DNA of 64,000 nucleotides from Minisyncoccota bacterium (lineage in GTDB: Bacteria; Patescibacteriota; Minisyncoccia; Phycocordibacterales; DATDWN01), in NCBI GenBank assembly GCA_036517395.1, contig DATDWN010000010.1:33922-97921 (forward strand), given 5' to 3'. The first letter of the stretch is position 1. The number at the start of each line of letters is the position of its first letter. The position numbers were made by a program, and so were the translations under genes. The notes beneath the pieces are model-generated. The model searched no databases, was not told where the DNA came from, and saw only the letters and a list, made by a program, of their open reading frames with translations. This document shows, piece by piece, positions 3,300-43,871 of this stretch.

Positions 3300-3313
3300 T
3301 TTATAGAAAAAAT

Positions 3314-3907
3314 ATGGAAATTATGCATATTGTATTCAATTTCGTTAAAAAATATTGGGTTGTGATTGTAGGGATGGTTGTGATTATGGCTGTGACGGGT
3401 GGGATAGAAGCATGGTCGGGGCGAGCGCTTCTTGGTCCTGATGGTCTGTTTGGCTGGTGGGATGGGAATATTTGGGGTAGTGAAAACTCTCAGCGCGTAG
3501 CGGACGCGTATTCTTTTTCGCATATTATTCACGGGATGATTTTCTACTGGTTCCTGTGGCTAGTGGCGAGAAAGGTTCCGGTGAAATACAGGTTTATAAT
3601 GGCTCTGGTTTTAGAGGCGGCATGGGAGCTTTTGGAAAATTCTCCTATCATCATCGACCGCTATCGTGCGGCGACAATCGCTCAAGGTTATGTTGGCGAC
3701 AGCGTGCTGAACTCTGTTTCGGATGTTCTCATGGCTGGGATAGGATTTGTTATCGCAAGGTATTCTCGCGTTTGGGCGACGGTGGTGCTGATTGTCATGA
3801 TGGAACTCGGATGTCTTTTCTGGATTCGGGACAATCTGACACTAAATGTAGTTATGCTAGTTTACCCCATAGAATCTCTCAAAGTCTGGCAATCCGAAGG
3901 GTATTAA
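3314..3907 (+). CDS. Integral membrane protein (DUF2585/UPF0314-like)
   Basis: Multiple transmembrane helices and an SFSHIIHG motif. GC content is moderately above the surroundings. Confidence 0.45.
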   Translation: MEIMHIVFNFVKKYWVVIVGMVVIMAVTGGIEAWSGRALLGPDGLFGWWDGNIWGSENSQRVADAYSFSHIIHGMIFYWFLWLVARKVPVKYRFIMALVLEAAWELLENSPIIIDRYRAATIAQGYVGDSVLNSVSDVLMAGIGFVIARYSRVWATVVLIVMMELGCLFWIRDNLTLNVVMLVYPIESLKVWQSEGY

Positions 3908-3940
3908 AATCCATAAGTTAATTAGATAATTATAAAATAA

Positions 3941-3986
3941 AACAATGACATTCCTACATTCTCAAGAATGTCGGAATGTCATTGTT
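3941..3986. repeat. 46-bp near-perfect palindrome aacaatgacattcctacattct-ca-agaatgtcggaatgtcattgtt (copy 1)
   Basis: 22-bp arms with one mismatch. Lies 19 bp upstream of the ArsR-like gene. Confidence 0.8.
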
Positions 3987-4004
3987 TGTAATGTAGTTTA
4001 AAGT

Positions 4005-4298
4005 TTGTGTTATTATAAAAGTATGAAAACCGCCAAGCAGTGCGAGAGATATTTCAAAGGGGCGGCTAATCATTGTCGGATAGATATTTTAGTTTTGGTT
4101 TCTAAAAACCCCGATATGACTGTGGAGGGTATCGCTGACACTTTGGGTAAAAATATTAAAACTGTTTCCGAACATACCAGACGACTGGTCCATGCGGGTC
4201 TTCTGAATAAAAAATATCAAGGAAGACATGTTATACACTCCCTTTCGCCATATGGAAAAAGATTTGTTCCGTTTATAAAATCATTCCTACATTCTTGA
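4005..4298 (+). CDS. ArsR-like winged-helix transcriptional regulator
   Basis: HTH pattern (VEGIADTLGKNIKTVSEHTRRLVHAGLL) with a winged-helix region following. The stop codon lies inside palindrome copy 2. Confidence 0.5.
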   Translation: MCYYKSMKTAKQCERYFKGAANHCRIDILVLVSKNPDMTVEGIADTLGKNIKTVSEHTRRLVHAGLLNKKYQGRHVIHSLSPYGKRFVPFIKSFLHS

Positions 4299-4312
4299 GA
4301 ATGTCGGAATGA
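4281..4312. repeat. 32-bp palindrome tcattcctacattct-tg-agaatgtcggaatga (copy 2 of the 3941 palindrome core)
   Basis: Same core as the 3941..3986 palindrome. Overlaps the ArsR-like stop and lies upstream of the 4345 gene. Confidence 0.8.
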
Positions 4313-4344
4313 TTATTATAATCTAAAAAATTAATCCAAAACCG

Positions 4345-4851
4345 ATGAAAGCAAAACTAGATCAACAACAAAACAACAACTCATCTCTTCAGCCAATTTT
4401 GTTTACTAGAGAGCAATACAAGGAACTGTTTCGAGCCATTAGCATATACGCTTTGATAAAACAGTCCTCAGCCATGCCCTATCTAGATCCGACTGGTTTA
4501 GGTGACTATATTATGCAACAGGGAGAAAAATTTGGTTTTGGCAAAGTGAAAGAAAATGAAGCCGATTGGTTTGATGAAGTGGAGGAGGAAGTTTTTGAGA
4601 ACATTTTCAATTACGCCCAAGGAGAGATGTTTCATCATTTAGCTCATATGCTCGCGGACAGAGATATCAGCATGGAGATTGAAGATGGAACTGGACTTTC
4701 AGAAGATGAATTGCCGTCCAGTATGTTTATGGATGCTGTGGCCAAGAGGGTGGATATGTATCTAAAAGAATTTGAAAAAAACGGAATTGATAATATAAAG
4801 GTCTTATGTAAGGATGCTGATAAATCTAGTCTAAATATTCGGCCCAAATAA
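4345..4851 (+). CDS. Hypothetical protein
   Basis: 168-aa ORF with no recognisable motif. Confidence 0.4.
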   Translation: MKAKLDQQQNNNSSLQPILFTREQYKELFRAISIYALIKQSSAMPYLDPTGLGDYIMQQGEKFGFGKVKENEADWFDEVEEEVFENIFNYAQGEMFHHLAHMLADRDISMEIEDGTGLSEDELPSSMFMDAVAKRVDMYLKEFEKNGIDNIKVLCKDADKSSLNIRPK

Positions 4852-4910
4852 AATTTTAGATAATTTTAGATAATTGGATAAATAAGGCTGTGGTGGTAAA
4901 GTTATAGGAT

Positions 4911-5465
4911 ATGGGAATAGAAGAAAGATACATTAATCATTTGGATGCTGGGTCGGGCGGGGATATGGGGCTTGAGGGGCAGGGTTTTCCAGCTGAGGAA
5001 GTGGTTGTTAATTTTTTCAATGCCAGTGGTTTTGATGCGCGTTTTTCCACAGCAACTGAGGATGAGGGGACAACTGATATTGGACCGAAACAGATAATAG
5101 ATGCGGTGGTTTATTATGATGGCAAACCAGCCATGGCTCCGCAAATTACTACTAGCACTATTAAAAGTTTCAGAGAGAAAAAATTAGACGAACTGCGTCA
5201 GAGACCATTTCTGCGTTTGGACGAAATGGGTCCGAGTGACCCGGCAATCCCAAAAGTTCTTATTTATTTGAAGGCGAAAGATGTCAAAGCTTTTGGAGAG
5301 GATCCTGATTTTAGCCGCCATCCAGAAATCGCGCTTCAGATTCTTAACAGTAGTATTATCAGTTTGAATTTTGATTTGAGTAAAACCGAAAACCCGCTGG
5401 AGCAAAAAGCTATCACGGAATTGGTAGGAATGCTTGAGACTGAGAAAAAGAAGTACATTCACTAG
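4911..5465 (+). CDS. Hypothetical protein
   Basis: 184-aa ORF with no recognisable motif. Confidence 0.4.
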   Translation: MGIEERYINHLDAGSGGDMGLEGQGFPAEEVVVNFFNASGFDARFSTATEDEGTTDIGPKQIIDAVVYYDGKPAMAPQITTSTIKSFREKKLDELRQRPFLRLDEMGPSDPAIPKVLIYLKAKDVKAFGEDPDFSRHPEIALQILNSSIISLNFDLSKTENPLEQKAITELVGMLETEKKKYIH

Positions 5466-5529
5466 CAGTTTTCAAATTTCAAAACAGTTTTCATTTTTTA
5501 TCGTATATGCTATTCTACGGGCAGATGTT

Positions 5530-5900
5530 CTAGCCCCAACTAACCAAAGTCAGCCCACCGAAGGAGGTGATTGCCGTGGGTGGACATGTGCGCGGTGAAC
5601 TCGCTGAGACTGCAGCCGCTCTATTGCGACTAAGTCTCACTGACTCGACAGTGGTGATCAAGGCGTTCATTGAGGATGGGTACTTCCACCTCGAGGAACT
5701 CCAGGGTCGCGCGACCTGCAACCCCCTGCAGGTGAACAGTCTGGCGCAACGAATCGATAGGGCTGAAAGTCTTCTCGTGACCAAGGCCAAACAGAAAGCG
5801 GGGTTGCTCGCTCGGCGGGAGGTGAGTCGATGAGGTGTCGTTGGGGAGAGTGCTCGTGTTTGCGTGGCCTAGGTCACAAAAGCACGAGCACTTTTCCATT
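5530..5900. other. GC-rich (about 58% GC) 370-nt segment without a consistent ORF; candidate structured RNA or foreign non-coding leader. Ends in a hairpin agtgctcgtg...cacgagcact followed by TTTT.
   Basis: Sharp compositional jump. Overlapping short ORFs on both strands. Terminal stem-loop at about 5850..5897. Confidence 0.3.
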
Positions 5901-5941
5901 TATAGTGACAACATGTCTAATTGTATAAGTCAATATTTCAT

Positions 5942-5970
5942 TTGACATAAACAATAGAGTGTGATAGAAT
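5942..5970 (+). promoter_or_regulatory. Sigma-70-type promoter TTGACA-17-TAGAAT
   Basis: Exact -35 hexamer with 17-bp spacer. SD AGGAGAAGG at 6033..6040 precedes the ATG at 6042. Confidence 0.5.
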
Positions 5971-6041
5971 ATTCAACAGATTGCGAAATACGGCTCATTT
6001 CATGGAGAAATGGGGTATTTCGCGAGTTTTTAGGAGAAGGT

Positions 6042-6938
6042 ATGAAAACACTCCGGTTCGTCGTAGTTTTTCTGATCGCGATTCTCATCTCGGTTTCGTC
6101 GACGTTCGCGCAGTCGGTTCCGACGGCGCCCACGGGGACGTCGCAGCCGGGCATCATTTCGCCAGTTGCGATGGACATCATCTCGATCAAGCCGACGGGG
6201 ATTCAGGGACGTGTCCAGGATTACTGGGGCAACCCGATTCCCGGCGCGTCCCTCGTCGTGTCGATCGTGCGACCCGATGGACAGAGTGGACAGCCATTCG
6301 CCGACCATGCGACCGCCAAGAAATTCGGGCCGTGCGAGTCGGGCAAGACGACGGACTGCGTTCGGAAAGATGGGAACTACAGCATCCCGAACTCGTCTCT
6401 CCCACAGTCGGACAACAAGTACGACGCGTGGCGGACTATCGACCTACGTGGCGAGGCCAAGGGTTTTGTCCATCACCTGGCTAACCCTGTTCAGATCAGT
6501 CTGGACGGGACCTCAAACCAGCAGGTGCAGGCGGTCCAGATGTACGAGAGTGGCTTCGCGACCAGTCAGGCCTATGCCTGGCGGGTGAACGACCGCGTGA
6601 CGGCCGTCGGGTTCTGGATGCGCCAGAACTGGACGGAGACCGTCTCCGTCAACTTCACCTTCAGGGGCTCGGCATGGACAGCGGTTCAAGCCGAGTATGG
6701 TATGACTCCGGTCTATGCCGAGGTTGGTCAAGGACCCCAAGGCAATGGTGTCTGGGTGGAGAGATGGTTCTGGACGCCTCAGAGCCCGACAGCACAGTTC
6801 GGCGGATCGTTCTGCGGGACGATCCAGATCAGCTCGGCCTACGAGGTCGAGCAGGTCAAAGCAGACCTGAAGGAGGTCTGCGTCAAGCTACCCAACGTCG
6901 CCGTAACAGGCGGTGGGGGTGGTGGAGGCAAGGGGTAA
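6042..6938 (+). CDS. Secreted protein with carboxypeptidase-regulatory-like (Cna-B-like) domain and C-terminal poly-Gly tail; GC-rich (about 60% GC)
   Basis: Signal peptide MKTLRFVVVFLIAILISVSSTFAQS. GRVQDYWGNPIPGASLVV motif. Ends GGGGGGGKG. The start is moved to the internal Met that carries a Shine-Dalgarno site. Confidence 0.6.
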   Translation: MKTLRFVVVFLIAILISVSSTFAQSVPTAPTGTSQPGIISPVAMDIISIKPTGIQGRVQDYWGNPIPGASLVVSIVRPDGQSGQPFADHATAKKFGPCESGKTTDCVRKDGNYSIPNSSLPQSDNKYDAWRTIDLRGEAKGFVHHLANPVQISLDGTSNQQVQAVQMYESGFATSQAYAWRVNDRVTAVGFWMRQNWTETVSVNFTFRGSAWTAVQAEYGMTPVYAEVGQGPQGNGVWVERWFWTPQSPTAQFGGSFCGTIQISSAYEVEQVKADLKEVCVKLPNVAVTGGGGGGGKG

Positions 6939-7001
6939 AGTAAATCCCGTGCCATGCTCATTCAAAGGCCGGTCCATCGCGGATCGGCCTTTTGTCATGC
7001 A

Positions 7002-7137
7002 TGTCCGCACACCAACTCTGGCATTGTGTCTTCCGTTGCTAATGTTGATAATTTAAGCGACAAATGTCAGTTGGTCATTGTTTGATTACACTATAATTTT
7101 GACACAGATGCAACGATGCCAGAGTTGGTGTGCGGAT
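7002..7137. mobile_element. MITE-like element (family 1, CCAAC variant) with about 21-bp terminal inverted repeats tccgcacaccaactctggcat
   Basis: Left end tccgcacaccaactctggcat; right end atgccagagttggtgtgcgga. Non-coding interior. Confidence 0.75.
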
Positions 7138-7159
7138 AAAGTTATCCACAGTTTCTTTA

Positions 7160-7195
7160 TTGACAGGTGAACCAGCGTTCACTAAACTGTATTTA
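7160..7195 (+). promoter_or_regulatory. Promoter TTGACA-17-TAAACT with embedded Cheo-type LexA box GAACCAGCGTTC (7169..7180)
   Basis: GAAC-N4-GTTC palindrome lying exactly in the spacer between -35 and -10, upstream of the lexA operon. Confidence 0.6.
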
Positions 7196-7218
7196 TATAA
7201 AAACTAACACAAAATAAA

Positions 7219-7419
7219 ATGTCCAAAAACAATTTAGAAAAAACATTGAGGAAGGAGTTAGAAGTTTTGAACGATGTGATAGATAGGAGAATATTGCGAG
7301 GCTTGTCATACAGTCGGGAGGCAAAGAGGCACAAGTTTGTTCTCTCTAACTTGTCGAGGATTAGACGAGAGTCGAGTGTTGGTAGTGGTTGGCTGTCGAG
7401 ATCGTTTTCAATAATTTAG
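7219..7419 (+). CDS. Small basic hypothetical protein (66 aa), first gene of lexA operon
   Basis: ORF between the LexA-box promoter and lexA. No homology recognised. Confidence 0.3.
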   Translation: MSKNNLEKTLRKELEVLNDVIDRRILRGLSYSREAKRHKFVLSNLSRIRRESSVGSGWLSRSFSII

Positions 7420-7441
7420 ATTTGAAAAATTTCATAAAAAC

Positions 7442-8026
7442 ATGTCAGAAGAAAAATACATAGTACAGAAAAATAAAATCACCTCTTTCTACCAGAAGCA
7501 TCGGCGCATGCCTGGGTATAAAGAAATCATGGATATGGTTGGGTTCAAATCGAAGAACGCCGTTTACAAACTTATAAACAAGCTGGTGGAGGATGAAGTG
7601 GTGGACAAAGATTCCAAAGGCAGACTTACTCCGATAAAAATATTTGGAGCGATACCGCTTCTCGGTCTTGTCGAGGCTGGGTTTCCGACAAGCGTGGATG
7701 AAGATAGATCGGAATCACTGAGCATAGACGAGTATCTGGTTGGTGGGAGCAAACAAGGCTCAACATATTTGCTGGAGGTAAAGGGGGATTCGATGATAGA
7801 TGAAGGGATAAGAGAAGGTGATCTGGTTCTGGCCGAGAGGCGAGGCGATCCGAAAGACGGCGATATAGTTATAGCCGAGGTTGATGGTGGTTGGACTATG
7901 AAATATTTCAAAAAAAAGGGCGATTTGATTTACCTAAAACCGGCGAATAAAAATTACTCACCTATATATCCGCAGTATGACCTAAAAGTTGCGGCGATTG
8001 TTAAGGGGGTGATAAGGAAATATTGA
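7442..8026 (+). CDS. lexA: LexA repressor (S24 peptidase family)
   Basis: N-terminal wHTH. VEAG Ala-Gly cleavage site, GDSM serine and downstream Lys. 194 aa. Confidence 0.85.
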   Translation: MSEEKYIVQKNKITSFYQKHRRMPGYKEIMDMVGFKSKNAVYKLINKLVEDEVVDKDSKGRLTPIKIFGAIPLLGLVEAGFPTSVDEDRSESLSIDEYLVGGSKQGSTYLLEVKGDSMIDEGIREGDLVLAERRGDPKDGDIVIAEVDGGWTMKYFKKKGDLIYLKPANKNYSPIYPQYDLKVAAIVKGVIRKY

Positions 8027-8433
8027 TGATAGATAATGAGAGCAAGGAATACGATGTATGGAACAGATTGAAGAAAAAGATTCAATCTGGTTCAGATATA
8101 CCCAATTTTTTTCCACAGGAGGGTGAAGTATGGATGTCTTCACTTGGTAAAAACATTGGATTTGAACAAAATGGAAGTGGGGCTAACTTTTCCAGGCCGA
8201 TATTAGTAGTTAAAAAGTTTAATAACCACATGTTTTGGTGTACTTCACTTTCAACTAAACAAAAAAAGTTTGATTTCTACTACAATTTTACAGATCCGAA
8301 TAGAGAAAAAGTTTCTGTTATCCTTGCTCAGTTAAAGTTGGTTAGTGTCAAAAGATTAAAAAGAAAGTTATATGATATTTCATCAGGTAATTTTACAGAA
8401 ATAAAATGCAAATTAAGAGGATTTTTGGAGTAA
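8023..8433 (+). CDS. MazF/PemK-family toxin-like protein (endoribonuclease fold)
   Basis: GEVWMS..GFEQNG..RPILVV..CTSLST..VILAQLKLVSVKRL pattern matches the MazF/PemK fold. The ATGA overlap with the lexA stop suggests translational coupling. Confidence 0.55.
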   Translation: MMIDNESKEYDVWNRLKKKIQSGSDIPNFFPQEGEVWMSSLGKNIGFEQNGSGANFSRPILVVKKFNNHMFWCTSLSTKQKKFDFYYNFTDPNREKVSVILAQLKLVSVKRLKRKLYDISSGNFTEIKCKLRGFLE

Positions 8434-8437
8434 TCGA

Positions 8438-8460
8438 AATCCCACATCTCTGCGGGATTT
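8438..8460 (+). terminator. Stem-loop aaatccc-acatctctgc-gggattt after the lexA operon
   Basis: 7-bp perfect stem immediately after the mazF-like stop. The T-run is weak. Confidence 0.4.
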
Positions 8461-8542
8461 CTCGGAGCCTTTCGGCACTTTGTAACAAAAGTATATATGA
8501 ATGAATATAAATGTCAAGTATAAAATGTGGTAATATAAAAAT

Positions 8543-9109
8543 ATGGATCAATTTTTAATTGAAGCTAGAAGGCTGATGTATAGTGAAGTTGAGAAAACTG
8601 GAATTCCAGCAAAAGCACAGGTTGATTTAGCTGTGGAAAAAGGTATCGAGTTGGCCAAGAGACTCAATGTGAATGTGGATATTATTGAAGCAAGTACACT
8701 ACTCATGGATTGCATGGTTGGGCAGGCTGTAAAGGCTAAACGACTGAATGATCACGTCAGCATGTCACTTGAAAAAGCGAAGGAATTATTGAATCAATCT
8801 TCTTTATCAATAAAAGAAAAAGATAATATATATCATTGCATATTGGAGCATCATGGTGTTGAGAAATTTTATTCTCTTGAATCTGAAATTTGTTGCAATG
8901 CAGATTGTTATAAATTTGCTTCGATGAGAGGTTTTGTTATAGCTTTAAGATATACAAGAGACATGCCGCTAAAGGATTTGGTCGCATTACTCACACAAAA
9001 AGTAGAGGAAAAATGGAGTATTGTCAGTCTTCAGTCGGTCAAAGACGATTTAAAAGATCAATACCAAATGGTTACTAAAATACTTCATAACTTATCATTA
9101 GAAATATGA
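8543..9109 (+). CDS. Hypothetical protein (degenerate HD-domain-like)
   Basis: ASTLLMDCMVGQ resembles the HD motif, with the His replaced. Confidence 0.35.
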   Translation: MDQFLIEARRLMYSEVEKTGIPAKAQVDLAVEKGIELAKRLNVNVDIIEASTLLMDCMVGQAVKAKRLNDHVSMSLEKAKELLNQSSLSIKEKDNIYHCILEHHGVEKFYSLESEICCNADCYKFASMRGFVIALRYTRDMPLKDLVALLTQKVEEKWSIVSLQSVKDDLKDQYQMVTKILHNLSLEI

Positions 9110-9726
9110 AACTAACAAAATATGAACAATCGGGGTTTGTGTTGGAGACTGATGCTGGATTTCGGTTGGCTTTTGATATTGGAGCATATACTCCTGTCGA
9201 AAAGCTAGAGGGTGTAGCGGTAGATGCAATGCTGGTCTCGCATCTGCACGGCGATCACTTTTCACCTGAACAGATAAAAGCACTTAGTGCTAAAAAACTT
9301 TACTTAAATCAGGAATGTGTGGATTTGTGGGGAGAAGGAGGTAATGGTATTGAAGTAGAAAGAGTTAAGGTTGGGGATAGTGTTAAAATCGGAGAGATTA
9401 GTGTGGAACTTTTTGATGTTAATCATGGGACAAATATTTCAATGAGACCAAAAGAGAACTTTGGTTTTTTGATGAAAGCAGATGGGCGGACTGTCTATTT
9501 TGCTGGGGATATGTTTTATGAGTCAGGTATGGATGTGAGTAGTCTTGAAGTTGATTTTGCACTTATACCAGTCGGAATTTTTTATACATTTGGTCCGGAA
9601 GAGGCTTTTGATTTTGCCAAGAAGTTCAAAGGGATTGGCAAAATTATCCCAATGCATTATGAAAAAACTCCAGGGACAAAAAGTAAGTTTATGGAATTAG
9701 CAAAAGGAACATTTGAATTAGAATAA
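9106..9726 (+). CDS. MBL-fold metallo-hydrolase
   Basis: HLHGDH zinc-binding motif (VSHLHGDHF). Confidence 0.7.
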   Translation: MKLTKYEQSGFVLETDAGFRLAFDIGAYTPVEKLEGVAVDAMLVSHLHGDHFSPEQIKALSAKKLYLNQECVDLWGEGGNGIEVERVKVGDSVKIGEISVELFDVNHGTNISMRPKENFGFLMKADGRTVYFAGDMFYESGMDVSSLEVDFALIPVGIFYTFGPEEAFDFAKKFKGIGKIIPMHYEKTPGTKSKFMELAKGTFELE

Positions 9727-9733
9727 ATATCCC

Positions 9734-10120
9734 ATGGTCAGATACAAAATGAGAGTTATACGTGGAGCGTTTACCGATCCTACTGTACTGGATCAGCTGA
9801 ACGCTGTCATTATTGAAAAATATGATCGGGATGAGTGGATAAGTATTGACGAAGTAGTGGTTACACTAGATGAGGTAGAACAGTTACAGAAGTTAATGAT
9901 AAAACATTACGACGACCCAGATGTTCCTTGGTATATGGACGGATACCAAGTTGATGATAAGAACAAAATGATTGTCGCTTTTGGAGCTGATGATGGTGAA
10001 GGGGGAAGAATCTTTCAGTTTGATCGTAGTGATAAAAATATGATGCAAATCGTTGCTAAGTATGGAGTATTAAAAGGCATTCCTGCAGAACAGATGGATT
10101 TTGGAGAGATTGATTTCTAA
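9734..10120 (+). CDS. Hypothetical protein
   Basis: 128-aa ORF with no recognisable motif. Confidence 0.4.
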   Translation: MVRYKMRVIRGAFTDPTVLDQLNAVIIEKYDRDEWISIDEVVVTLDEVEQLQKLMIKHYDDPDVPWYMDGYQVDDKNKMIVAFGADDGEGGRIFQFDRSDKNMMQIVAKYGVLKGIPAEQMDFGEIDF

Positions 10121-14200: not shown

Positions 14201-14434
14201 ATGGAAGTCTGGGCTCTTCTCGGTCACGGAGCGGCGCATACTTTGCAGGAAATTTTAACTATCAAATCAGACGATATTGTTGGTCGCTCGGCTGCCTTTG
14301 ATGCAATAGTTAAAGGTCTGCCAATAACACAGCTTAACACTCCAGCCTCGTTTAATGTGCTTCTGAACAATCTTCGCGGACTAGCACTTGATGTGCAGAT
14401 AAAGAAAGGGTCGAAGGAGGAGAAGATAACGTAA
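11237..14434 (+). CDS. rpoB: DNA-directed RNA polymerase subunit beta
   Basis: Full-length match to RpoB conserved blocks (e.g. the NMQRQAVP-like region, GDKLAGRHGNKGV). Compact, 1065 aa. Confidence 0.97.
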   Translation: MQNLPSATGVRPQKFFSRFKKPLLPTPNFVESQLNSFKWLTEKGLSEVFTEFSSIKDYSEKKFTLDFTGFELAQAKYDEYYAKDNKLSYEAPLKVKVRLKNHILGTEKEQEIFMADFPLMTSHGTFIISGIERVIVPQLARSYGVFFTASEVKGRKLFGAKIIPSRGAWVEIESDADGMIFVRIDRKRKFPGTTLLRVLGAKDDGAIKKLFEGDKFATAAIEKTLLKDHGKSIDEAYIEIHKRLRDGDLATAENAKEFIDSIFGGDRYDLSPVGRHMFNKRFNKKMTEAELKRKTLSLEDVVTIVSHIALLNNTPHAVEDDIDHLGTRRVRFVGELFQQNIRKGMAQIKRNIQNRMSTIDTDVTLPVQFVAPRPLQARIKEFFTTNQLSQFMLQENSLAEIEHLRTLSALGAGGLNRTRAGFEVRDVHTSHYGRLCPIHTPEGPNIGLVLRMAIYARINAFGMIETPYAKVKSGKVTDEIVYLNASQEEEYAIAHAATPVDETGKITVALVEVRKEGEPRAVPKDQVDFMDVSTSQAFSIATSMIPFLNHNKTDRALMASNMQKQATPCIVPEAPLVATGMETSAIRDTGRLVIAGEEGTVTHSDGLKVAVKNSKGKEIVHNLVRFSRTNGFTAFHQRPSVNVGDKVKLGDILADTSASQNGQSAIGQNMLTAFMSWGGSNYEDAIILSERVVKDSKFTSIHIEEFVVNVRDTKLGPEVTTCDIPNVGESKLKNLAEDGIVRVGAEVRSGDILVGKITPKGETQLTPEERLLRSLFGEKAHDVKDTSKRMEGGKRGRIIKVQIFSREKGDKLDSGIIKRIHIEVAQLRNVSVGDKLAGRHGNKGVISRILPEEDMPYMADGTPVDVILTPLGVPSRMNLGQILELHLGLAAHTLGYQAIVPPFIGATGQEIKAELVKAGFPESGKIKLFDGRTGEAFERDVAVGYMYIIKLHHMVEDKIHMRSIGPYSLITQQPLGGKAQNGGQRFGEMEVWALLGHGAAHTLQEILTIKSDDIVGRSAAFDAIVKGLPITQLNTPASFNVLLNNLRGLALDVQIKKGSKEEKIT

Positions 14435-31210: not shown

Positions 31211-31212
31211 AA

Positions 31213-33048
31213 TTATTTTCTGGTCACTTTCTTTCTTAGTCTGACAGATTTCGGAGTAATCTCTATAAACTCGTCATCGGACATCACTTCCATAGCTTTC
31301 TCAATATCCAGTTTATAGGTAGCGGCGAGGTAAACGCTGTCATCTGATCCGGCCGCTCTCATGTTTGTCAGTTGTTTGCCTTTTGTTGGATTTACAAACA
31401 AGTCGTCGCCCTTTGAAACATTGCCTATGACTTGACCAACGTAGACTTCCACTCCTGGGTCAACATACAAAGTCCCTCTCTGTTGCAAGTTATCCAATGC
31501 AAAAGCCAAGACCTTGCCTTTTTCCATTGAAACCATCGAGCCGTAACTCGTCTTTTTTATTTCACCGACAAATTCTCTAAATTCTATAAATCGCGAAGAG
31601 AGAATGCCGTTGCCTTTTGTATCTACTATAAACTGCCCACGATAACCCAGAAGTCCGCGCGTCGGAATCTCAATTACAATTCTTTGATGCCCGTGTGTCT
31701 GCTTTACACTAGTTAAAATTCCACGTCTTTCTGTCAGTCGAGAAATAACAGAACCAGCCAATTCATCGGAGACATCCACAGTTACTTCTTCAAAAGGTTC
31801 CATTTTCACACCATTAACGTTTTCTTTTATAATAACGTGGGGCTGGGAAACCTGGAGTTCAAATCCTTCACGACGCATGTTTTCCAGAAGTATGGCGATG
31901 TGAAGCTCACCACGCCCGTATACAGTATAGCCTTGGATGGCCGGATTTTCATCATTCCACTCAATTTTCAACCCGACGTTTATTTCCAGCTCTTTTTCCA
32001 AGCGTTCACGAATTTGTCGTCCTGTGACAAACTTTCCTTCACGTCCGGCGAAGGGTGAGTCGTTTACCAAAAAGTTCATGGAAATAGTTGGTTCGTCAAT
32101 GTTTATAGATGGCAGGGTTTCCGCATCTTCGCTCTGGCAAATAGTGTCGCCAATATAAATAGTAGGAAGCCCCGCGATCATAACAATATCTCCCGCGGCG
32201 GCCATATCAGTTTCCACTCTTTTTGTACCTTCAAAGCTGAAAAGTTTTGTAAGTTTTCCCCTAAACTCAGGCTTTGCCTGAGTCGGGCGATCATCCGCTT
32301 CTGCGGATGATTTAGCCGAGATACCTTTTTTAACATATACAACATCGCCACTTTTTACGATGCCCTCGTAAACTCTACAGACAGCAAGTCTGCCGAGGAA
32401 GTTATCATATGCGAGGTTGAAAGATTGAAGTCGGGCTGGGAGATTTTTGTCTCCACTTGCTGCGGGCACTTCACGCAGTATTGTTTCAAGAAGGGGAGTT
32501 AAATCTTTTGATTCATCCGACAGTTTCATTTTGGCAATTCCGTCACGCCCGATAGCGTAAACAGTTGTAAAGTCCAGCTGTTCGTCGTTTGCGCCGAGCT
32601 CTAGGAAAAGCTCCAAAACAAGTTCATGCACTTCCTCTGGCCTTGCCGCTGCTTTGTCTATTTTATTTATTATGACGATAGGTTTCAATCCCAGTTCGAG
32701 AGATTTTTTCAAAACAAATCTAGTTTGTGGCATCGGCCCTTCCTGCGCATCGACGAGCAGAAGCACGGTGTCTATCGAACGTAGCACTCGCTCAACCTCG
32801 GAACCAAAGTCTGAGTGTCCAGGGGTATCAACAATATTTATTTTAGTAACTTCGCGACCTGAGTCTCTACTAGGGTAATACACTGATGTGTTTTTGGCGT
32901 ATATGGTAATGCCACGCTCGAGTTCGAGGGCGTTTGAGTCCATGGTGACACCCTCGGCAGTCATGCCTGTTTGGCGCATGAGAGCGTCGGTGAGAGTAGT
33001 CTTACCGTGATCAACGTGGGCTATGATTGCAATGTTTCGTATCTCCAT
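31213..33048 (-). CDS. typA: Translational GTPase TypA/BipA
   Basis: NIAIIAHVDHGKTTL G1 motif. PTISMNFLVNDSPFAGREGKFVTGRQIRERL and YGRGELHIAILLENMRREGFEL are diagnostic of BipA rather than LepA. Confidence 0.9.
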   Translation of the reverse strand: MEIRNIAIIAHVDHGKTTLTDALMRQTGMTAEGVTMDSNALELERGITIYAKNTSVYYPSRDSGREVTKINIVDTPGHSDFGSEVERVLRSIDTVLLLVDAQEGPMPQTRFVLKKSLELGLKPIVIINKIDKAAARPEEVHELVLELFLELGANDEQLDFTTVYAIGRDGIAKMKLSDESKDLTPLLETILREVPAASGDKNLPARLQSFNLAYDNFLGRLAVCRVYEGIVKSGDVVYVKKGISAKSSAEADDRPTQAKPEFRGKLTKLFSFEGTKRVETDMAAAGDIVMIAGLPTIYIGDTICQSEDAETLPSINIDEPTISMNFLVNDSPFAGREGKFVTGRQIRERLEKELEINVGLKIEWNDENPAIQGYTVYGRGELHIAILLENMRREGFELQVSQPHVIIKENVNGVKMEPFEEVTVDVSDELAGSVISRLTERRGILTSVKQTHGHQRIVIEIPTRGLLGYRGQFIVDTKGNGILSSRFIEFREFVGEIKKTSYGSMVSMEKGKVLAFALDNLQQRGTLYVDPGVEVYVGQVIGNVSKGDDLFVNPTKGKQLTNMRAAGSDDSVYLAATYKLDIEKAMEVMSDDEFIEITPKSVRLRKKVTRK

Positions 33049-33422
33049 TTGTTTGATTTGTATATTTGGCGCATTTCGTTGTTGGAAAGCAAAAAATTAT
33101 TCTCACCTGCGCACTCAGGCAGGCTCGAATCCTTTTTCACTTTCCGCCTAGAACTGCATCCAAATCTCCAAATCAAAGGATGCAATTCATTGAAAAACCG
33201 GCTACAGCCGGCGGTCAAGATTTAATTAAAGCATAATTTGTTTAATGATGCAAATTAGGCCTAATTATGGCTAATTTTAGGCCTTATTTTGGTACTTGAC
33301 ACGAGTATACTTGCGGTATACAATATAGGTAGATTCTTCGGGCTCCTCTCCCTACCCCTCAATACGAACTTCTGGAAAGTTAACTGTTCGGCCACGGGCC
33401 GACGCACACTGAGGTAGCAGCC

Positions 33423-33974
33423 ATGCCAACGTATTCGCAGATTCTGCCCTGGGCTCTGGCCTGGGCTCTGGCCTTCTTCGGTTTTCTCATTCTCTTTGGC
33501 ATCATCTTCCAGAAGAAGCACAAAAGTGACATCGACGCGCTGAAAGTCGACATCACGTTGTGGAAGACGAATTCGAAGGAGCTGTCCACGACGCTCGAGA
33601 ATATGAGGAGGGAGGTGAGTGACCTCACCCATGAACGTGACGACCTGAAGCAGTTCGTCAGCGCGTTCGTCTCGGACGAGCATGCCCTCGAGGTCATGGG
33701 TCTCGCCACGGCGCGTATGCACGAGGTCTGCCAGAAGGCCGTCGGCGATCACGGAAAATTTCCCACATACGACCTCGACCCCGACGAGTTTCAACGGCAG
33801 CTCCTCATGGTTGTATCCATCATGGCGTCGGAGGCGGAGGTCGTCGAACGTGCCGCCGATGACTGGCGATCTCTCATGTATCTCGCGATGCATGCGGGTT
33901 ATCCCACGAGGATCGACCCCACGACCCGGAGGGTGGTCATTGACCGCGAGAAGGAGGCGTCGAGCGCGGCGTAG
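33423..33974 (+). CDS. Hypothetical membrane/coiled-coil protein; GC-rich
   Basis: N-terminal TM helix, then a charged coiled-coil-like region. Chosen over the antisense 210-aa ORF. Hairpin terminator gggccgaac..gttcggccc at about 33998..34030. Confidence 0.4.
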   Translation: MPTYSQILPWALAWALAFFGFLILFGIIFQKKHKSDIDALKVDITLWKTNSKELSTTLENMRREVSDLTHERDDLKQFVSAFVSDEHALEVMGLATARMHEVCQKAVGDHGKFPTYDLDPDEFQRQLLMVVSIMASEAEVVERAADDWRSLMYLAMHAGYPTRIDPTTRRVVIDREKEASSAA

Positions 33975-34057
33975 TCGTCGTCGACAGCGTAGTTCTTTAA
34001 GGGCCGAACCGTATGTGTTCGGCCCTTTCGCTTATCTAAATATAATTTTAACCACTA

Positions 34058-34210
34058 AGCCCAATCTCGTCGAGGCAAAACCTTTTTGGAACATCGCGCA
34101 GGAGCTTAGAAAATTACAATTGTAACCAATTGATAATTTACTTGAGTTCCGAGCGTGAAGAAAAATTTCAACAGAAATTTATTCTGTTTCCAAAAAGGTT
34201 TTGGTGAGAA
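34058..34210. repeat. 155-bp MITE-like repeat family 2, copy R2, immediately upstream of the DedA-like gene
   Basis: Matches the reverse complement of R1. Termini caaaacctttttggaac ... gtttccaaaaaggtttt. Confidence 0.8.
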
Positions 34211-34244
34211 AGAGATTGGGCGAATTGTGTGCTAAAATGTCTCA

Positions 34245-34841: not shown

Positions 34842-35114
34842 TTGACTTATAATATAGAGATGACAGAGACACTACCTCCACTTACACTACCCACCATTCC
34901 ATATATAAATCTACCTTTTCTTTTTAGTCTGCAAATACTCATGGTTATTTTTGTTCTGTTTCTAATAACATATCTTATTGTGTCCGCGGTTTTGTTTTAC
35001 CACTGGACATCATATGGTATGCGCAGTTTTGGTATATTAGTGGCGGAAACGCTGTTTACCATAGTTTCGGTTACGCTTTTTACCGTGGCTGGTTTAGCCC
35101 TGCATTATTTTTAG
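34842..35114 (+). CDS. Small membrane protein (90 aa)
   Basis: Two hydrophobic helices. Confidence 0.3.
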   Translation: MTYNIEMTETLPPLTLPTIPYINLPFLFSLQILMVIFVLFLITYLIVSAVLFYHWTSYGMRSFGILVAETLFTIVSVTLFTVAGLALHYF

Positions 35115-35151
35115 AAATTAGAATAATTAGGTTAATTAGAAATTTAATAAT

Positions 35152-38654: not shown

Positions 38655-38736
38655 CAGATGATAGGAAGTTTTGTGTTTTTTCGTATACAAAATCCGCCTC
38701 CCTCGGATTTTGTACACTAGGGGGGCGGGTGGTTAG

Positions 38737-39453
38737 TCAGCCCCCAATAGTTTTCAAGAGGGCGTTGATTTTTCTCATCTGATCATTGGCACCAATGCTC
38801 TGTGCCATCAGAAGCGCCCGCAGAAGATAGGTGCGGGCCCTGTCATGGTCCTTCATCTCGGGTTTGAGAAACAACTCGCCGGCCTTGCGCAGGACCCGAG
38901 AGAACTGAGCCTTGGCCTGTAGTCGGTTTGGCTCCTGCCGGATTTCCTTGTCCATGGCTACCGCCGTCTCAACCAGGCTCATGATCTCGTTGCGGTTGAA
39001 GTCGGTAGCGTAGATGGTTTCAGCCAGGGTCATCCTGACCAAGGCTCTCTGATGGGCCTTCGCGCCATCTGTGGCTGCTAGAGCCACAGCCCTTCGGGCC
39101 AAGAAAAGCGGCCCCAGATCCTCTGACTGCTTCAGACGGGATGGCTGTCCCACAGTGATTCCTGGGATTCTTGCCCGCGCCTTGAGCAAGAACTGCACCA
39201 GAACATCGAGCTGGGTGTGGCTGCACTTCTTGTATTGTAACCAGAGAAATGTAGCGTGGATGGTGCCGAAGATGCAGAGTTGCACAGGGTGTTGTCGTGC
39301 CACGCTGATGTAGGCCGATAGCATGATGCTGTGGCCTTGGATGTACCGTCCCCAGTTCCTGCATTTTCGGGCGTCAGTTCGAGCCATGGCCAGGGCGTCT
39401 GGGTGGCCCTTCCACATGGCTTCCGCCGTGTTTGCCGGTTTTCTGGTTTCCAA
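38737..39453 (-). CDS. Hypothetical protein; GC-rich (about 57% GC)
   Basis: 238-aa ORF. Compositionally distinct island. Confidence 0.4.
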   Translation of the reverse strand: METRKPANTAEAMWKGHPDALAMARTDARKCRNWGRYIQGHSIMLSAYISVARQHPVQLCIFGTIHATFLWLQYKKCSHTQLDVLVQFLLKARARIPGITVGQPSRLKQSEDLGPLFLARRAVALAATDGAKAHQRALVRMTLAETIYATDFNRNEIMSLVETAVAMDKEIRQEPNRLQAKAQFSRVLRKAGELFLKPEMKDHDRARTYLLRALLMAQSIGANDQMRKINALLKTIGG

Positions 39454-39526
39454 GTATCCTCCTCTCCAGACGCGGTGTGCGTCTGATAATTTCCGAGTTC
39501 AGATTATCACGAGAGTTTAGTTTTGT

Positions 39527-40927: not shown

Positions 40928-41088
40928 AGCAGTGTTATCAAAATTTAATCTTAATTTAATAATAGTATTCTTGTGTTTGTCTTAAGTCAACTAACCAAGA
41001 ATCAATAACTGTGTTGTAATACGTTTAATTTAATAAGAAGTTAATGATGTTCCTTGCAAATCTTAATAATAGGTGATAGACTCTATGT

Positions 41089-41757
41089 ATGGCAATTCTG
41101 ATTATTGAGGATGAAAAAAAGCTGGTGGATATAATAAAACGCGCTCTGAAAAGTGAGCGTTATTCTGTCGACACAGCATATGATGGACAAGAAGGTCTTG
41201 AGAAGGCCATGAAGAACAATTACTCCTTGATTATTCTTGATATTATGCTTCCGAAAAAGGATGGGTTGACTGTATGTAAGGACCTACGGGCCCGAAATAT
41301 TCATACTCCAATCATAATGCTAACTGCCCGAGGCACGGTGGAAGACAAGGTAAGAGGGCTTGATGTTGGGGCGGATGATTACCTTATAAAACCTTTTGGG
41401 ATAAAAGAACTTTTTGCTCGAATTCGCGCTGTTTTGAGACGAAGAAAAACTACTGATTCGGATATAAAAAAAATTGCTAATCTGGTAATGGATAAAAAGA
41501 AACACGAGGTTACTCGCGCGGGCAAAATTATTGACCTCACACCAAAAGAGTACAAGCTTTTAGACACACTTCTAACGAGAATGGGGGAAGCGGTAAAGAG
41601 GCGAGATCTCATTGATCATGCTTGGGGGCCAGAATTTAAAGAGACAAACAATGAACTGAATGTTCATATTAAATATCTGCGTAACAAAATAGACGCTGGC
41701 AAAAACAAGCCCTTGATACAAACAATACGCGGAGTCGGTTTTGTTTTGAAAGAATAA
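41089..41757 (+). CDS. OmpR-family response regulator
   Basis: Receiver domain (D in ILDIMLP) plus a winged-helix trans_reg_C domain. Confidence 0.9.
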   Translation: MAILIIEDEKKLVDIIKRALKSERYSVDTAYDGQEGLEKAMKNNYSLIILDIMLPKKDGLTVCKDLRARNIHTPIIMLTARGTVEDKVRGLDVGADDYLIKPFGIKELFARIRAVLRRRKTTDSDIKKIANLVMDKKKHEVTRAGKIIDLTPKEYKLLDTLLTRMGEAVKRRDLIDHAWGPEFKETNNELNVHIKYLRNKIDAGKNKPLIQTIRGVGFVLKE

Positions 41758-41762
41758 AAATA

Positions 41763-42914
41763 GTGAAAAAAAAGCCAGAAAAAGAAATAGAAACAAAATT
41801 AAAAGAGTCGGAGATCAGATACCGACGTCTTTTTGAGACAGCCCATGATGGAATACTTATACTTGATTCAAATACCGGACAGATTACAGACGTCAACCCT
41901 TTTTTAGTCACTTTGTTGGGTTATTCTAAAACTGAACTATTGAATAAAAAACTGTGGGAAGTCGGGGCGTTTAAAAACATGAAAGCCTCAAAGGACGCTT
42001 TTAAAATTCTTCAAACACAAGGTCATTTGCGTTATGACAACTTACCCCTAGAGACAAAAGGAGGCCAACCTGTTGAGGTTGAGTTTGTCAGTAACTCATA
42101 CATGGCGGGAGATACTCTGGTTATACAGTGCAATATAAGAGATATAACTGAACGCAAGAGACTCGATCTGATAAAAGAAACAGAACGGCTTCTTCAAGAA
42201 GAGAAGTTAAAAGTGGAATCAATCGCCGACGCCACGCATGAACTTCGTACTCCTATTGCAATAATAAAGGGCAATGTTGATCTAGCCATGCAGGATAAAA
42301 GTAAAAACCCCAAACCGGCAAAGAGTGCCCTCAAAGCCATAAACTATGAGGTAAAGCATCTTAGTAGTATTTTGGCGGATTTGTCTTTGGTAACTTCAAA
42401 AGCTTGGGAATTAAAAAATAGAATTGTTTATGAAAAACTAAATCTGAAATCCCTCGTAACAACTGTAGTGGAGAGGTGTAAAGCTTTGGCTTATAAGAAA
42501 AATATCTCCATAACTACTAGAAATATACCAAGCATAACTCTGGTAGGAGATAAAGTTTATTTAGAAAAAATGTTGGTCAATCTGGTAAAGAACTCGATTA
42601 TTTATGGTAATAGAGATGGTTATACAAAAATCTCAGTAGATAAATCCAAAGAGTTTGTTACGATAAACATAACAGACAATGGAATCGGAATATCGGAAGA
42701 AGATTCACCGCATGTATTTGAGAGGTTTTATAGAGCTGATAAATATCACACTAGTGGTGGAAACAGTATTGGTCTGGGATTGGCTATTGTAAAATGGATT
42801 GCGGAAATTCATGGCGGTACAGTCAGCGTCAAAAGTGTAAAAAATAAAAATAACGCCAAGGGCAGTGTTTTTAGCGTCTCCTTGCCTTTGAAAAACAAAT
42901 CTAAAGCCACTTAA
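41763..42914 (+). CDS. PAS-domain sensor histidine kinase
   Basis: PAS domain, HisKA H-box ATHELRTPIAIIKG, and HATPase_c N/G boxes. Confidence 0.85.
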   Translation: MKKKPEKEIETKLKESEIRYRRLFETAHDGILILDSNTGQITDVNPFLVTLLGYSKTELLNKKLWEVGAFKNMKASKDAFKILQTQGHLRYDNLPLETKGGQPVEVEFVSNSYMAGDTLVIQCNIRDITERKRLDLIKETERLLQEEKLKVESIADATHELRTPIAIIKGNVDLAMQDKSKNPKPAKSALKAINYEVKHLSSILADLSLVTSKAWELKNRIVYEKLNLKSLVTTVVERCKALAYKKNISITTRNIPSITLVGDKVYLEKMLVNLVKNSIIYGNRDGYTKISVDKSKEFVTINITDNGIGISEEDSPHVFERFYRADKYHTSGGNSIGLGLAIVKWIAEIHGGTVSVKSVKNKNNAKGSVFSVSLPLKNKSKAT

Positions 42915-42982
42915 GAAGCTATATTTTTGTTGTTTATTTAATTCTACTTGTGTGATATAAAGCAGGGAGAAAGAGGTGCCAG

Positions 42983-43807
42983 ATGACAATGACAAAGCAG
43001 GCTCTGCTTCTGAGACTTGCCCAAGTTGTCTCCCTGGAACAGAGGGAACAGCTTCGGCAAACTTGGAACAGAAATGTTTCCAGCCCTGCCGCTTTCCTGC
43101 CACACGAGAGGGTGGGGAAAGTGAGCATAGAGGAAGCGGAAGCGAACAACAAGGACCTTGGGAATTTCAGCACCGGTTTTGTCCGGCGCTGTCTTGCCCA
43201 GTTCGCAACCACGCAAGGGAAGGTTCGGCGCGAGATTGAGAGGAAGAAAATCATCGCTGTCGGTTACGGCCGCGGCTATGATTCTCCGTGGATCTATGAA
43301 GCAGGACTGGCGGGGCTGGCCACTTGGTGGATTGATGTGTCGGATAAAGCTTTGGAATTGGCCTGGCCAGACATCGAGGCCCAGGTCTACGCTTCAGAAG
43401 CTCGTGGAGTTTCATGTCCATCCCCCGGCGTGAGGCTGGGAGAAATCCATACAGTTCTCTCAGACCCAAGCAGTATTGGTCTGGAAGATCTGTCCACCAT
43501 TTCGGCTTGGTACTTCGGTCGGACCCTCGGTTGTCTATACAAGTGGAGTGCTCCACTCGTTCTCCAGGAGGTGGGTCAAACCTTGAGTGAGGATGTGGAT
43601 CCCCTTAAGGAGAACCAGATTATTATTGTGCAGGGACTGCAGGATAATAATCAAGGCTATGTCAGCTGTACCAGCACTCTGCACCGTAGGACAATGATTC
43701 AACGAAATATAAGGAAAGGAGCTGGACGCTCTGTTGAGATCGCCCTTGAAGATACACACCCGTATTACGATAAAATCGTAACGGCGATGTGCTTCAAAGC
43801 GATCTAA
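42983..43807 (+). CDS. Hypothetical protein; GC-rich insert between two kinase genes
   Basis: 274-aa ORF at about 55% GC. IIAVGYGRGYD faintly resembles a Rossmann-like motif. Confidence 0.4.
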   Translation: MTMTKQALLLRLAQVVSLEQREQLRQTWNRNVSSPAAFLPHERVGKVSIEEAEANNKDLGNFSTGFVRRCLAQFATTQGKVRREIERKKIIAVGYGRGYDSPWIYEAGLAGLATWWIDVSDKALELAWPDIEAQVYASEARGVSCPSPGVRLGEIHTVLSDPSSIGLEDLSTISAWYFGRTLGCLYKWSAPLVLQEVGQTLSEDVDPLKENQIIIVQGLQDNNQGYVSCTSTLHRRTMIQRNIRKGAGRSVEIALEDTHPYYDKIVTAMCFKAI

Positions 43808-43871
43808 AATGGCGGACGGGAAAGAGGGGAAACCCTTGCTCTCGGCCGCCATTTGTTGTAGTTTATAGGAT

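Follow-up and report, generated by a model that had tools for sequence, protein, structure and literature searches.

Short GC-rich, Shine-Dalgarno-bearing islands in an AT-rich Paceibacterota chromosome resemble foreign expression cassettes and include a predicted porin-like barrel family

We analyzed a 64,000-nucleotide stretch of a contig from an AT-rich, ultra-small groundwater bacterium of the Candidatus Paceibacterota, a lineage of the candidate phyla radiation (CPR), in which short GC-rich islands lie between housekeeping genes (GenBank assembly GCA_036517395.1, contig DATDWN010000010.1, positions 33,922 to 97,921; this whole stretch is called the window below). The GC content of the window is 40.8%, and its backbone carries rpoB, rpoC, dnaG, rpoD, a UvrD/PcrA-type helicase gene, genes for a DsbA-like and an RNase-H-like protein, hisS, truB, and typA. 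The gene order rpoB-rpoC-dnaG-rpoD-uvrD-dsbA-rnh-hisS-truB-typA is kept in family-level relatives, and DnaG is 42-50% identical in the nearest species-level genomes, which are metagenome-assembled genomes of Paceibacteria/Parcubacteria. Proteins of this genome are listed at NCBI as HEY4508963-HEY4509003 (locus tags VJC13_*). The sole tRNA of the window (54168-54243) is distant from the islands. Compared contigs or genomes and proteins are given working labels (L- and P-numbers, e.g., L013 and P0004).

The initial annotation of this DNA had named seven islands of about 50-62% GC in a background below 40%. Six of the seven segments proved to be sharply set off, with 52-61% GC versus 39% for the backbone, whose 200-nucleotide (nt) windows have a mean GC of 0.392 (standard deviation, 0.056; maximum, 0.54). 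These are island 2 (5521-7060; GC, 0.56-0.59, with 100-nt peaks of 0.66), island 3 (21601-23840; 0.55-0.59), island 4 (30781-31240; 0.57), island 5 (33501-34100; 0.56), island 6 (38701-39520; 0.54-0.56), and island 7 (43001-43500; 0.55). The segment at 3300-3900 (island 1) is weak: its gene has a GC content of only 46% and a third-position GC content (GC3) of 0.49, at the upper edge of the native range. Each island is a single gene or a short cassette, as had been annotated. GC3 values were 0.52-0.79 for the island open reading frames (ORFs) versus 0.24-0.50 for native genes, ranges that do not overlap (Mann-Whitney p = 7e-7), and the sliding-window GC analysis that had been proposed as a check marked the six islands as deviant. 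A total of 11 GC-rich segments were flagged here versus 0-4, mostly none, in related Paceibacteria loci of about 20 kb.

Aggregate GC contents at the first, second, and third codon positions were 0.59, 0.445, and 0.687 for the islands versus 0.49, 0.345, and 0.371 for native genes. Under the Muto-Osawa relations, the island values are those of a genome near 60% GC, deviating from the relations about as the native genes do, and the signature of amelioration (third positions ahead of first and second ones) was not seen in the aggregated island values. The codon shift spans every codon class (C over T, G over A, CGN over AGR, and CTN over TTR) and looks like a different mutational equilibrium rather than an adaptation to tRNAs. 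In base composition and codon usage, the islands deviate in the way expected of horizontally acquired islets.

The second property that sets the islands apart, and the one with the sharpest contrast, is translation initiation. Shine-Dalgarno (SD) sites of at least 5 nt at proper spacing precede 8 of 11 island genes versus 1 of 47 native genes (Fisher p = 7e-7), bearing out the earlier statement that SD sites mark the island genes and are largely absent from native ones. The housekeeping ORFs of relatives are also devoid of SD sites, including those of relatives at 53-60% GC, and none of 10 native genes in L102 has one. The anti-SD motif is missing in about half of Parcubacteria (PMC9297842), and the lack of SD sites on native genes in both the window and its relatives indicated a trait of the lineage, in agreement with that report, which did not describe SD-bearing gene islets inside genomes without the anti-SD, unlike the situation here. 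Loss of the anti-SD in this genome can only be inferred, because the 16S 3′ end lies outside the window.

Promoter-like sequences are more equivocal. The window-wide count of sigma-70-like sites showed no excess over shuffle expectation (observed versus shuffled: 39 versus 43, 44 versus 36, and 47 versus 39); what is informative is solely where the best sites lie. Five near-consensus sites lie directly upstream of island genes, all on the forward strand: 5942-5970 before gene 2b (TTGACA-17-TAGAAT with an extended TG, 11/12 match), 21601-21629 before isl3a (TTGACA-17-TATCAT), 22365-22393 before isl3b (a perfect TTGACA-17-TATAAT, 12/12 match), the promoter-like site at 23073-23100 before isl3c/isl3d, and 33296-33324 before isl5 (TTGACA-17-TACAAT). 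Good promoter-like sites also precede several native genes (e.g., 10976, before rpoB; 27805; and 28437). The near-consensus sigma-70 promoters of the initial annotation are hence present at these five island positions but are neither enriched overall nor exclusive to islands.

Termination signals are more uniform. Strong hairpins, mostly with U-tracts, follow all 10 of 10 island ORF ends, with free energies (dG) of −19 to −57 kcal/mol and z scores of −3.3 to −7.8, and the bounding of islands by hairpin terminators was fully corroborated. They are located after gene 2a (5844-5897; dG −37.7 kcal/mol, z −7.3), gene 2b (6964-6993; −23.1, z −3.3), isl3a (22248-22333; two tandem hairpins, −57.4, z −7.8), isl3b (23024-23070; −35.7, z −5.4), isl3d (23785-23824), isl4 (31167-31201; −32.5, z −5.5), isl5 (33999-34027; −22.2, z −3.3), and isl7 (43808-43853; −29.6, z −4.6) on the forward strand and after isl6 (38683-38717; −18.8, z −3.5) on the reverse strand. 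No sequence common to these 3′ hairpins was found. Integron gene cassettes were considered and rejected, as the island units are dispersed, have their own promoters, and end in hairpins without a common sequence; intI was searched for within the window only.

The products of the islands are mostly orphans. Island 2 holds two genes on the forward strand. Gene 2a (5576-5833; GC 0.58, GC3 0.62) encodes an 85-amino-acid (aa) orphan whose start was reassigned to the GTG at 5576, behind an apparent SD site, GGAGGTG; its exact product is recorded in this population only. Gene 2b (isl2b; 6042-6938; GC3 0.72) encodes a secreted protein of 298 aa, the signal peptide of which ends in TFA, followed by QS. 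A word-indexed search of 5.8e9 proteins yielded a single relative of isl2b, P0004 (53% identity), whose gene is likewise a single-gene island of 60-69% GC, in a contig of 27-40% GC and next to other neighbors. Island 4 (isl4; 30812-31144, forward strand; GC 0.59, GC3 0.69, SD GGAGG) lies between truB and typA and encodes a 110-aa basic orphan that, judging from its residues, is possibly a helix-turn-helix protein; it was called as a gene in L001 and L003 and not in L002, despite identical DNA. The 183-aa product of island 5 (isl5; 33423-33974, forward strand; GC3 0.78) combines a transmembrane helix at the N terminus with a coiled coil after it and gave a weak PHROG match to an Rz-like spanin (E = 7.6e-4), while other lysis genes are absent nearby. 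An ORF on the opposite strand (33261-33893) was rejected as a shadow ORF of isl5, with a GC3 of 0.58 on the reverse versus 0.78 on the forward strand.

Island 6 (isl6; 38737-39453, reverse strand; GC 0.57, GC3 0.69) encodes a 238-aa helical orphan starting at a TTG behind GGAGAGGAGGA, with the SD site AGGAGG, and island 7 (isl7; 42983-43807, forward strand; GC 0.52, GC3 0.55, SD GAGGTG) encodes a 274-aa orphan between two histidine-kinase genes. Neither had a match in Pfam, the PDB, or plasmids. Across the islands, Pfam, PHROGs, and NCBIfam returned nothing but a DUF2585 match (island 1) and the weak spanin-like one, PDB sequence searches gave no convincing match, and the exact island products fall into tiny 90% clusters restricted to this population. 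From their sequences, 5 of the 11 products were judged to be secreted or membrane proteins, so the description of the genes as mostly of this kind stands for nearly half of them.

Island 3 contains four genes on the forward strand. The first, isl3a (21689-22243; GC 0.61, GC3 0.78), encodes a 184-aa signal-peptide protein with a C-terminal Phe, predicted to form a 12-stranded beta-barrel, and the second, isl3b (22444-22995), encodes a 183-aa paralogue of the same family (34% identity). They are followed by isl3c (23132-23305), for a 57-aa zinc-ribbon protein, and isl3d (23307-23759), for a 150-aa orphan, the evidence for the two being their ORFs, GC3, and gene calls in public assemblies. An AlphaFold2 model of isl3a built on a 10-sequence alignment had a predicted local distance difference test score (pLDDT) of 85.9 and a predicted template modeling score (pTM) of 0.75, with 12 strands in an antiparallel barrel of about 160 residues; a 3-sequence input had given a pLDDT of 36 and was discarded. 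The best solved neighbors in Foldseek were the porin KdgM (template modeling [TM] score, 0.59-0.65; E = 2.5e-5), VhGalP, NanC, and a designed 12-stranded transmembrane barrel, with TM scores of 0.5-0.65 across the barrel neighbors. The model predicts that isl3a and isl3b adopt a porin-like outer-membrane fold similar to that of KdgM/NanC (PF06178; PDB 4fqe, 4pr7, 2wjq, and 8xua), with which they would share 12 strands of alternating polar and apolar residues (TM, 0.51-0.65), in addition to the signal peptide and the C-terminal Phe. In sequence they differ, at 7-11% identity and without a PF06178 match. They also differ in host, being encoded in CPR-like genomes, and CPR bacteria are described as monoderm where examined (PMC8871954). 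Porin-like barrels are unexpected in a lineage so described. Envelope-biogenesis genes were absent from the 64-kb window, and a targeted full-text literature search found no paper on outer-membrane-type beta-barrel proteins in CPR.

A profile search of 1.84 billion representatives placed isl3a and isl3b in a family of 574 clusters at 50% identity (E ≤ 1e-3), or 291 at E ≤ 1e-10. Its members are about 180 aa long with N-terminal signal peptides visible in the sequence, and a C-terminal Phe is present in 97 of 156 proteins tallied, nearly all of them family representatives; the family has both the Sec signal peptide and the C-terminal aromatic beta-signal of outer-membrane barrels. Among 58 members searched against Pfam, no outer-membrane protein model was matched, and there were only two weak, unrelated matches, each to a single member; searches of PDB sequences found nothing at E ≤ 0.1.

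Members of the family are GC-elevated in five AT-rich CPR-like genomes (the window, L013, L094, L096, and L102), with GC3 values of 0.60-0.78 for the barrel genes versus 0.32-0.48 for the backbone. In all five, the barrel genes are preceded by a promoter with TTGACA and by a G-rich ribosome-binding site, the −35 box being perfect in L013, L094, L096, and L102 as well. A common motif, CAGAAA..GAGAGG, with a short GC hairpin and AAG after it, is found some 20-30 nt ahead of the SD site in the leaders of barrel-family genes (window, 21630-21688 and 22394-22443; L013, 334-386; L109, about 5300-5356). The stems vary in sequence with pairing retained, covariation support from the four sequences being weak, and Rfam has no match to this leader; it could be an mRNA-stabilizing or regulatory element.

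On two contigs of 56-59% GC (L097 and L099), in contrast, the barrel gene matches its surroundings, and strong SD sites are found on 16 of 21 and 4 of 6 neighboring genes, respectively. Such contigs look like the kind of pool from which the cassettes could derive. The L097 segment (1-9875, 59% GC) carries its barrel member among 21 small genes, 20 of them co-stranded and almost all without a Pfam match; the strong sites, on 16 of these genes, are of the AGGAGG type, one gene is prepilin-like, and neither PHROG matches nor an attC-like repeat family were found there; a phage, a plasmid, and a GC-rich organism are candidate sources of this contig. L096 contains a second GC-rich islet (14432-14809, reverse strand; GC 0.66, GC3 0.82 versus about 0.45 for the backbone) that encodes a 125-aa signal-peptide protein, so GC-rich islets for secreted proteins are not unique to the window genome. 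In L104 (7918-15700), a distant barrel member, P0017, comes just after a UvrD-type helicase gene and is followed by the phage-associated DUF3310, DUF6899, and DUF7487 genes; barrel genes adjoin a UvrD-type helicase in both L104 and the window, which may be coincidence.

The islands sit at junctions of conserved housekeeping genes, including rpoD/uvrD, truB/typA, typA/dedA-like, and others. Relatives were compared for presence or absence at the islands other than 2, 6, and 7. The rpoD-uvrD gap measures 170-700 bp in L017, L020, L026, L028, and L030 versus 2.7 kb here; therefore, on the scale of family-level relatives, island 3 represents an insertion. Three unrelated genes lie between rpoD and uvrD in L016, and the truB-typA junction of L017 holds an unrelated gene, for an RRM protein. 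Given this different cargo, both junctions are variable sites.

The initial annotation had supposed repeated small-scale acquisition, and for island 3 the data argue against recency. In L013, isl3a-isl3b-isl3c lie directly before uvrD at 55-65% protein identity, without isl3d and without an adjoining repeat; P0002 is the isl3b ortholog there (54-55%) in the same gene order, and the isl3c homologue at the same position is 41-44% identical. L094 has a barrel member and a zinc-ribbon gene followed by uvrD-dsbA(72%)-rnh(88%)-hisS(58%). At conserved codons, four-fold third-base identity was 0.32-0.44 versus an expected 0.26-0.31, for island and backbone genes alike, while GC at four-fold sites (GC4) in the compared genomes was 0.57-0.71 for island genes and 0.27-0.43 for backbone genes. 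An island at the same site in two other genomes, with four-fold sites near saturation, is not recent, and island 3 appears to have been in place before the window genome diverged from at least one of these genomes and probably from both. The case of L094 is the less secure one, since a rough neighbor-joining tree, in which isl3a and isl3b fall into separate subclades, did not place isl3a nearer to L094; the window isl3a is 47% identical to the L094 protein versus 49% to that of L102, which lies at another locus. We have downgraded the orthology accordingly, and vertical descent of island 3 from an ancestor shared with L094 is plausible but not proven. A second fixed barrel locus exists between gyrB and mraZ in L102 and L109, whose GyrB proteins are 83% identical versus only 38% for the barrel.

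We consider it reasonably probable that the islands are moron-like foreign expression cassettes, acquired horizontally at various times and retained in working order, their source being a pool of GC-rich genes that use SD sites. Each cassette forms a complete transcription unit: a sigma-70-type promoter, in many cases with a hairpin in the 5′ leader, is followed by an SD site and one to four ORFs whose codon usage is that of a roughly 60% GC genome, and a strong intrinsic terminator closes the unit. The pool would lie outside cultured genomes, plasmids, and phages, and expression and usefulness would be the reasons for which the cassettes are kept: island 3 may yield two abundant, Sec-exported, 12-stranded porin-like barrels (as predicted), and the others secreted, membrane, or small cytoplasmic orphans. 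It is the codon usage of a roughly 60% GC genome together with the SD contrast that points to a foreign origin. From the original proposal of horizontal acquisition, what we retain is the foreign make-up and the insertion of island 3, and what we give up is recency and delivery by mobile repeats.

Phage morons, as reportedly described by Hendrix and colleagues, are independent promoter-gene-terminator units between conserved genes, often of deviant GC. The islands resemble them in having their own promoter and intrinsic terminator, in lying between conserved neighbors, in their deviant composition, and in that relatives have nothing or something else at the corresponding junction. They are unlike morons in occupying a CPR chromosome with no phage genes nearby and in combining an upward GC deviation with an SD contrast to the host. 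For the fate of such imports, Lawrence and Ochman are said to have proposed in 1997 a model in which horizontally acquired DNA ameliorates. Island 1 fits this model, having proteobacterial homologues, an intermediate GC3, and host-like signals. Island 3 departs from it, as it keeps donor-like GC at all three codon positions despite near-saturated four-fold sites.

Horizontal gene transfer has been reported to make up as much as 13% of genome length in groundwater Patescibacteria, mostly between Patescibacteria, with ancient transfers escaping detection through amelioration (PMC12455944). The present islands are from the same phylum and habitat type as those genomic islands but differ in being islets of sub-kilobase to 2-kb size that carry orphan proteins and no mobility genes, and at least one of them is old and yet unameliorated, unlike the ancient transfers of that study.

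Several results weigh against a foreign origin. A donor lineage was identified for none of the strong islands, as the near-orphan status of their proteins leaves no donor identifiable; word-indexed searches gave zero to one relative for the strong-island products. Only island 1 has named homologues outside CPR, in Alphaproteobacteria, and the traced close relatives of the barrel family are from CPR-like genomes; with its closest members apparently all CPR-like and at fixed loci in genome pairs, this could be a native CPR family. Phage, plasmid, and viral collections held no match to island products; specifically, neither the barrel profile nor isl2b matched any viral contig, and tblastn was negative for isl6, isl7, and isl3a among plasmids and for isl3a among phages. 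Hallmarks of mobility are absent as well: Pfam, PHROGs, and NCBIfam revealed no integrase or transposase domain in the island ORFs, no insertion is adjacent to the tRNA, and no direct repeats were found at island borders. Finally, unameliorated GC3 over a saturated synonymous divergence is not predicted by simple transfer plus amelioration. The persistent GC-richness may be due to selection acting on the expression package or to sequences from a GC-rich pool repeatedly replacing the residents of the same junctions.

An unlikely though by no means negligible possibility is that the cassettes are native, lineage-specific Patescibacteria genes whose GC-rich package selection maintains, as it might where envelope proteins have to be expressed at very high levels. 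The recurrence of barrel members at the same locus in genome pairs, still GC-elevated at saturated synonymous sites, is consistent with this idea, and so are the perfect TTGACA and leader hairpin found before barrel members in several genomes, the CPR-like context of all close barrel relatives traced, and the GC3 of core housekeeping genes, which is slightly above that of other native genes. The initial annotation had itself named clustering with the backbone lineage at matching GC as a finding that would speak against horizontal acquisition. In part, this is what we observed: for the one traceable family, the barrels, same-lineage relatives carry genes of matching high GC, and a simple recent transfer is too simple a reading. 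Selection for expression, however, does not account well for rpoB, rpoC, and typA, which have no SD site and a GC3 of only 0.39-0.42, or for a codon shift that includes G over A and CGN over AGR and resembles a mutational equilibrium. Ten unrelated products, small cytoplasmic orphans among them, share the deviant make-up; barrel genes in GC-rich contigs match their surroundings; and the GC offset of barrel genes from the backbone varies from +0.05 (L109) to +0.2. The native and the foreign explanations merge if selection, or replacement recurring at one junction, keeps old imports foreign in composition.

The initial annotation had further held that most islands are bounded by miniature inverted-repeat transposable elements (MITEs) and that acquisition possibly went through MITE-rich hotspots. 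The window has seven copies of a MITE-like palindromic element of about 140 nt with terminal repeats of 30-35 nt (ATCCGCACACYAACTTTGG...). Three abut islands 2 and 3, namely, a copy at 6999-7140 next to island 2, with the terminal repeats ATCCGCACACYAACTTTGG..., and two overlapping copies between island 3 and uvrD (23831-24109, the second being 23970-24109); the other four are at island-free junctions (35852, 45387, 46556, and 47604). A second repeat of about 156 nt has one copy at 29810-29965 and another at 34063-34217, next to island 5, in inverted orientation (95.5% identity over 156 nt; arms 90-98% complementary). It is improbable, in our judgment, that the islands are recent, repeated small acquisitions through such hotspots. 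Repeats do abut islands 2, 3, and 5 right after their terminators, the conserved junctions do carry varied cargo among relatives, and the island composition does look unameliorated. Yet these repeats stand on one side only, no pair of MITE ends was found to bracket an island, islands 4, 6, and 7 have none, and the window is without a transposase; island 3 of L013 runs MITE-free into uvrD, and the island is common to deeply diverged genomes. The MITE-like elements look like independent colonizers of intergenic space, not vehicles.

A bolder proposal concerns function. The barrels, with their outer-membrane-type C-terminal signal, may be exported by a monoderm CPR epibiont, itself without an outer membrane, into the outer membrane of a diderm host as a nutrient conduit. 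The islet build would then be that of an actively maintained set of host-interface genes, upheld by selection or by recurrent replacement at fixed junctions from a GC-rich pool, and no passing trace of a recent transfer; we regard this as a long shot.

Two further explanations can be dealt with briefly. That the contig is a chimera of reads from AT-rich and GC-rich organisms, a warning given in the initial annotation, has nothing but the sharp compositional steps in its favor and is, short of a systematic artifact common to all assemblers, practically eliminated, as the exact product of 22444-22995 occurs in ten independently assembled contigs from nine samples (ENA, JGI, and Logan assemblies) whose identity to the window is 98.5-100% through the island borders (7 of 10 at ≥99.9%; L006 and L010 at about 98.5%), L106, a JGI contig, is identical to the window over 32989-53807, backbone in conserved synteny flanks every island on both sides, and the borders coincide with promoters and terminators rather than arbitrary points. 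GC-rich RNA genes are the classic cause of GC-rich islands in AT-rich genomes, and isl4 was not called as a gene by every pipeline; nevertheless, we give next to no credence to structured RNA genes or introns in place of protein genes, as, at the gathering threshold, a tRNA was the sole Rfam match in the window, islands 3-5 gave no credible match at E ≤ 1, the one thing that permissive scans picked up was the MITE hairpin (against miRNA models), every island ORF shows GC3 > GC1 > GC2 periodicity, isl2b and isl3a/b/c have homologues at the protein level, and the SD sites are properly spaced before starts.

Horizontal transfer and genomic islands in Patescibacteria (PMC12455944) and the lack of SD sites in Parcubacteria (PMC9297842) have been documented before, whereas we found no literature description of a coupling of SD sites to GC-rich islets in such a genome, of a moron-like anatomy on the chromosome, of a composition persisting over saturated divergence, or of the barrel family. 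If confirmed, the combination of SD sites and GC3 would provide a simple sequence test for foreign genes in SD-less CPR genomes, and the long-lasting foreign composition would challenge the dating of transfers by amelioration in these lineages. The barrels would constitute an undescribed family of small, 12-stranded, porin-like proteins (as predicted) whose genes occupy fixed positions on the chromosome, downstream of near-consensus promoters, in bacteria considered to lack an outer membrane, and would bear on the make-up of the CPR envelope and on how ultra-small epibionts tap their hosts.

The weak island 1 differs from the rest. Its gene (3314-3907, forward strand) encodes a DUF2585 membrane protein (Pfam E = 1.4e-64), has neither an SD site nor a promoter of its own, and starts 15 nt past the upstream native gene. 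Homologues of 46-48% identity are found on replicons of Rhizobiales and other Alphaproteobacteria, and island 1 would be an old, largely ameliorated import. Downstream of it, a 30-nt perfect hairpin (CATTCCTACATTCTCAAGAATGTCGGAATG) occurs in two copies of 93% identity (3940-3987 and 4282-4311) that flank a small ArsR-like helix-turn-helix gene (4005-4298); the folding energy of the first copy is −28 kcal/mol (z −7).

Further observations concern the repeats. A promoter-like site (24005-24034) lies inside the second MITE copy on the uvrD side, 97 nt before uvrD, and in the copies at 45387-45530, 46556-46694, and 47604-47746, the right repeat ends 5-7 nt before the ATGs at 45537, 46700, and 47752; the element may supply promoters or 5′ untranslated regions to neighboring genes. 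The inverted 156-nt pair flanks the 4.1-kb truB-island 4-typA-island 5 segment and could mediate an inversion, although none is evident, as the gene order matches that of relatives. AT-rich intergenic repeat families (TTCTAATTAACCTAAATAATAACC..., AATTAGAAATT..., and TTTTCAATGAATTAATTTTCAAA...) occur between native genes at 14429-14555, 18242-18363, 28451-28519, 35110-35145, 54740-54849, 60990-61113, and 61687-61805 and may represent promoter or terminator regions of the lineage itself. Among the native genes, 404-2716 encodes a 770-aa protein with an apparent P-loop ATPase/helicase-like body (GPGTGKS) and what seems to be a C-terminal LexA/S24-peptidase-like domain (GDSM...K), and a separate, putative LexA-like gene lies at 7442-8026.

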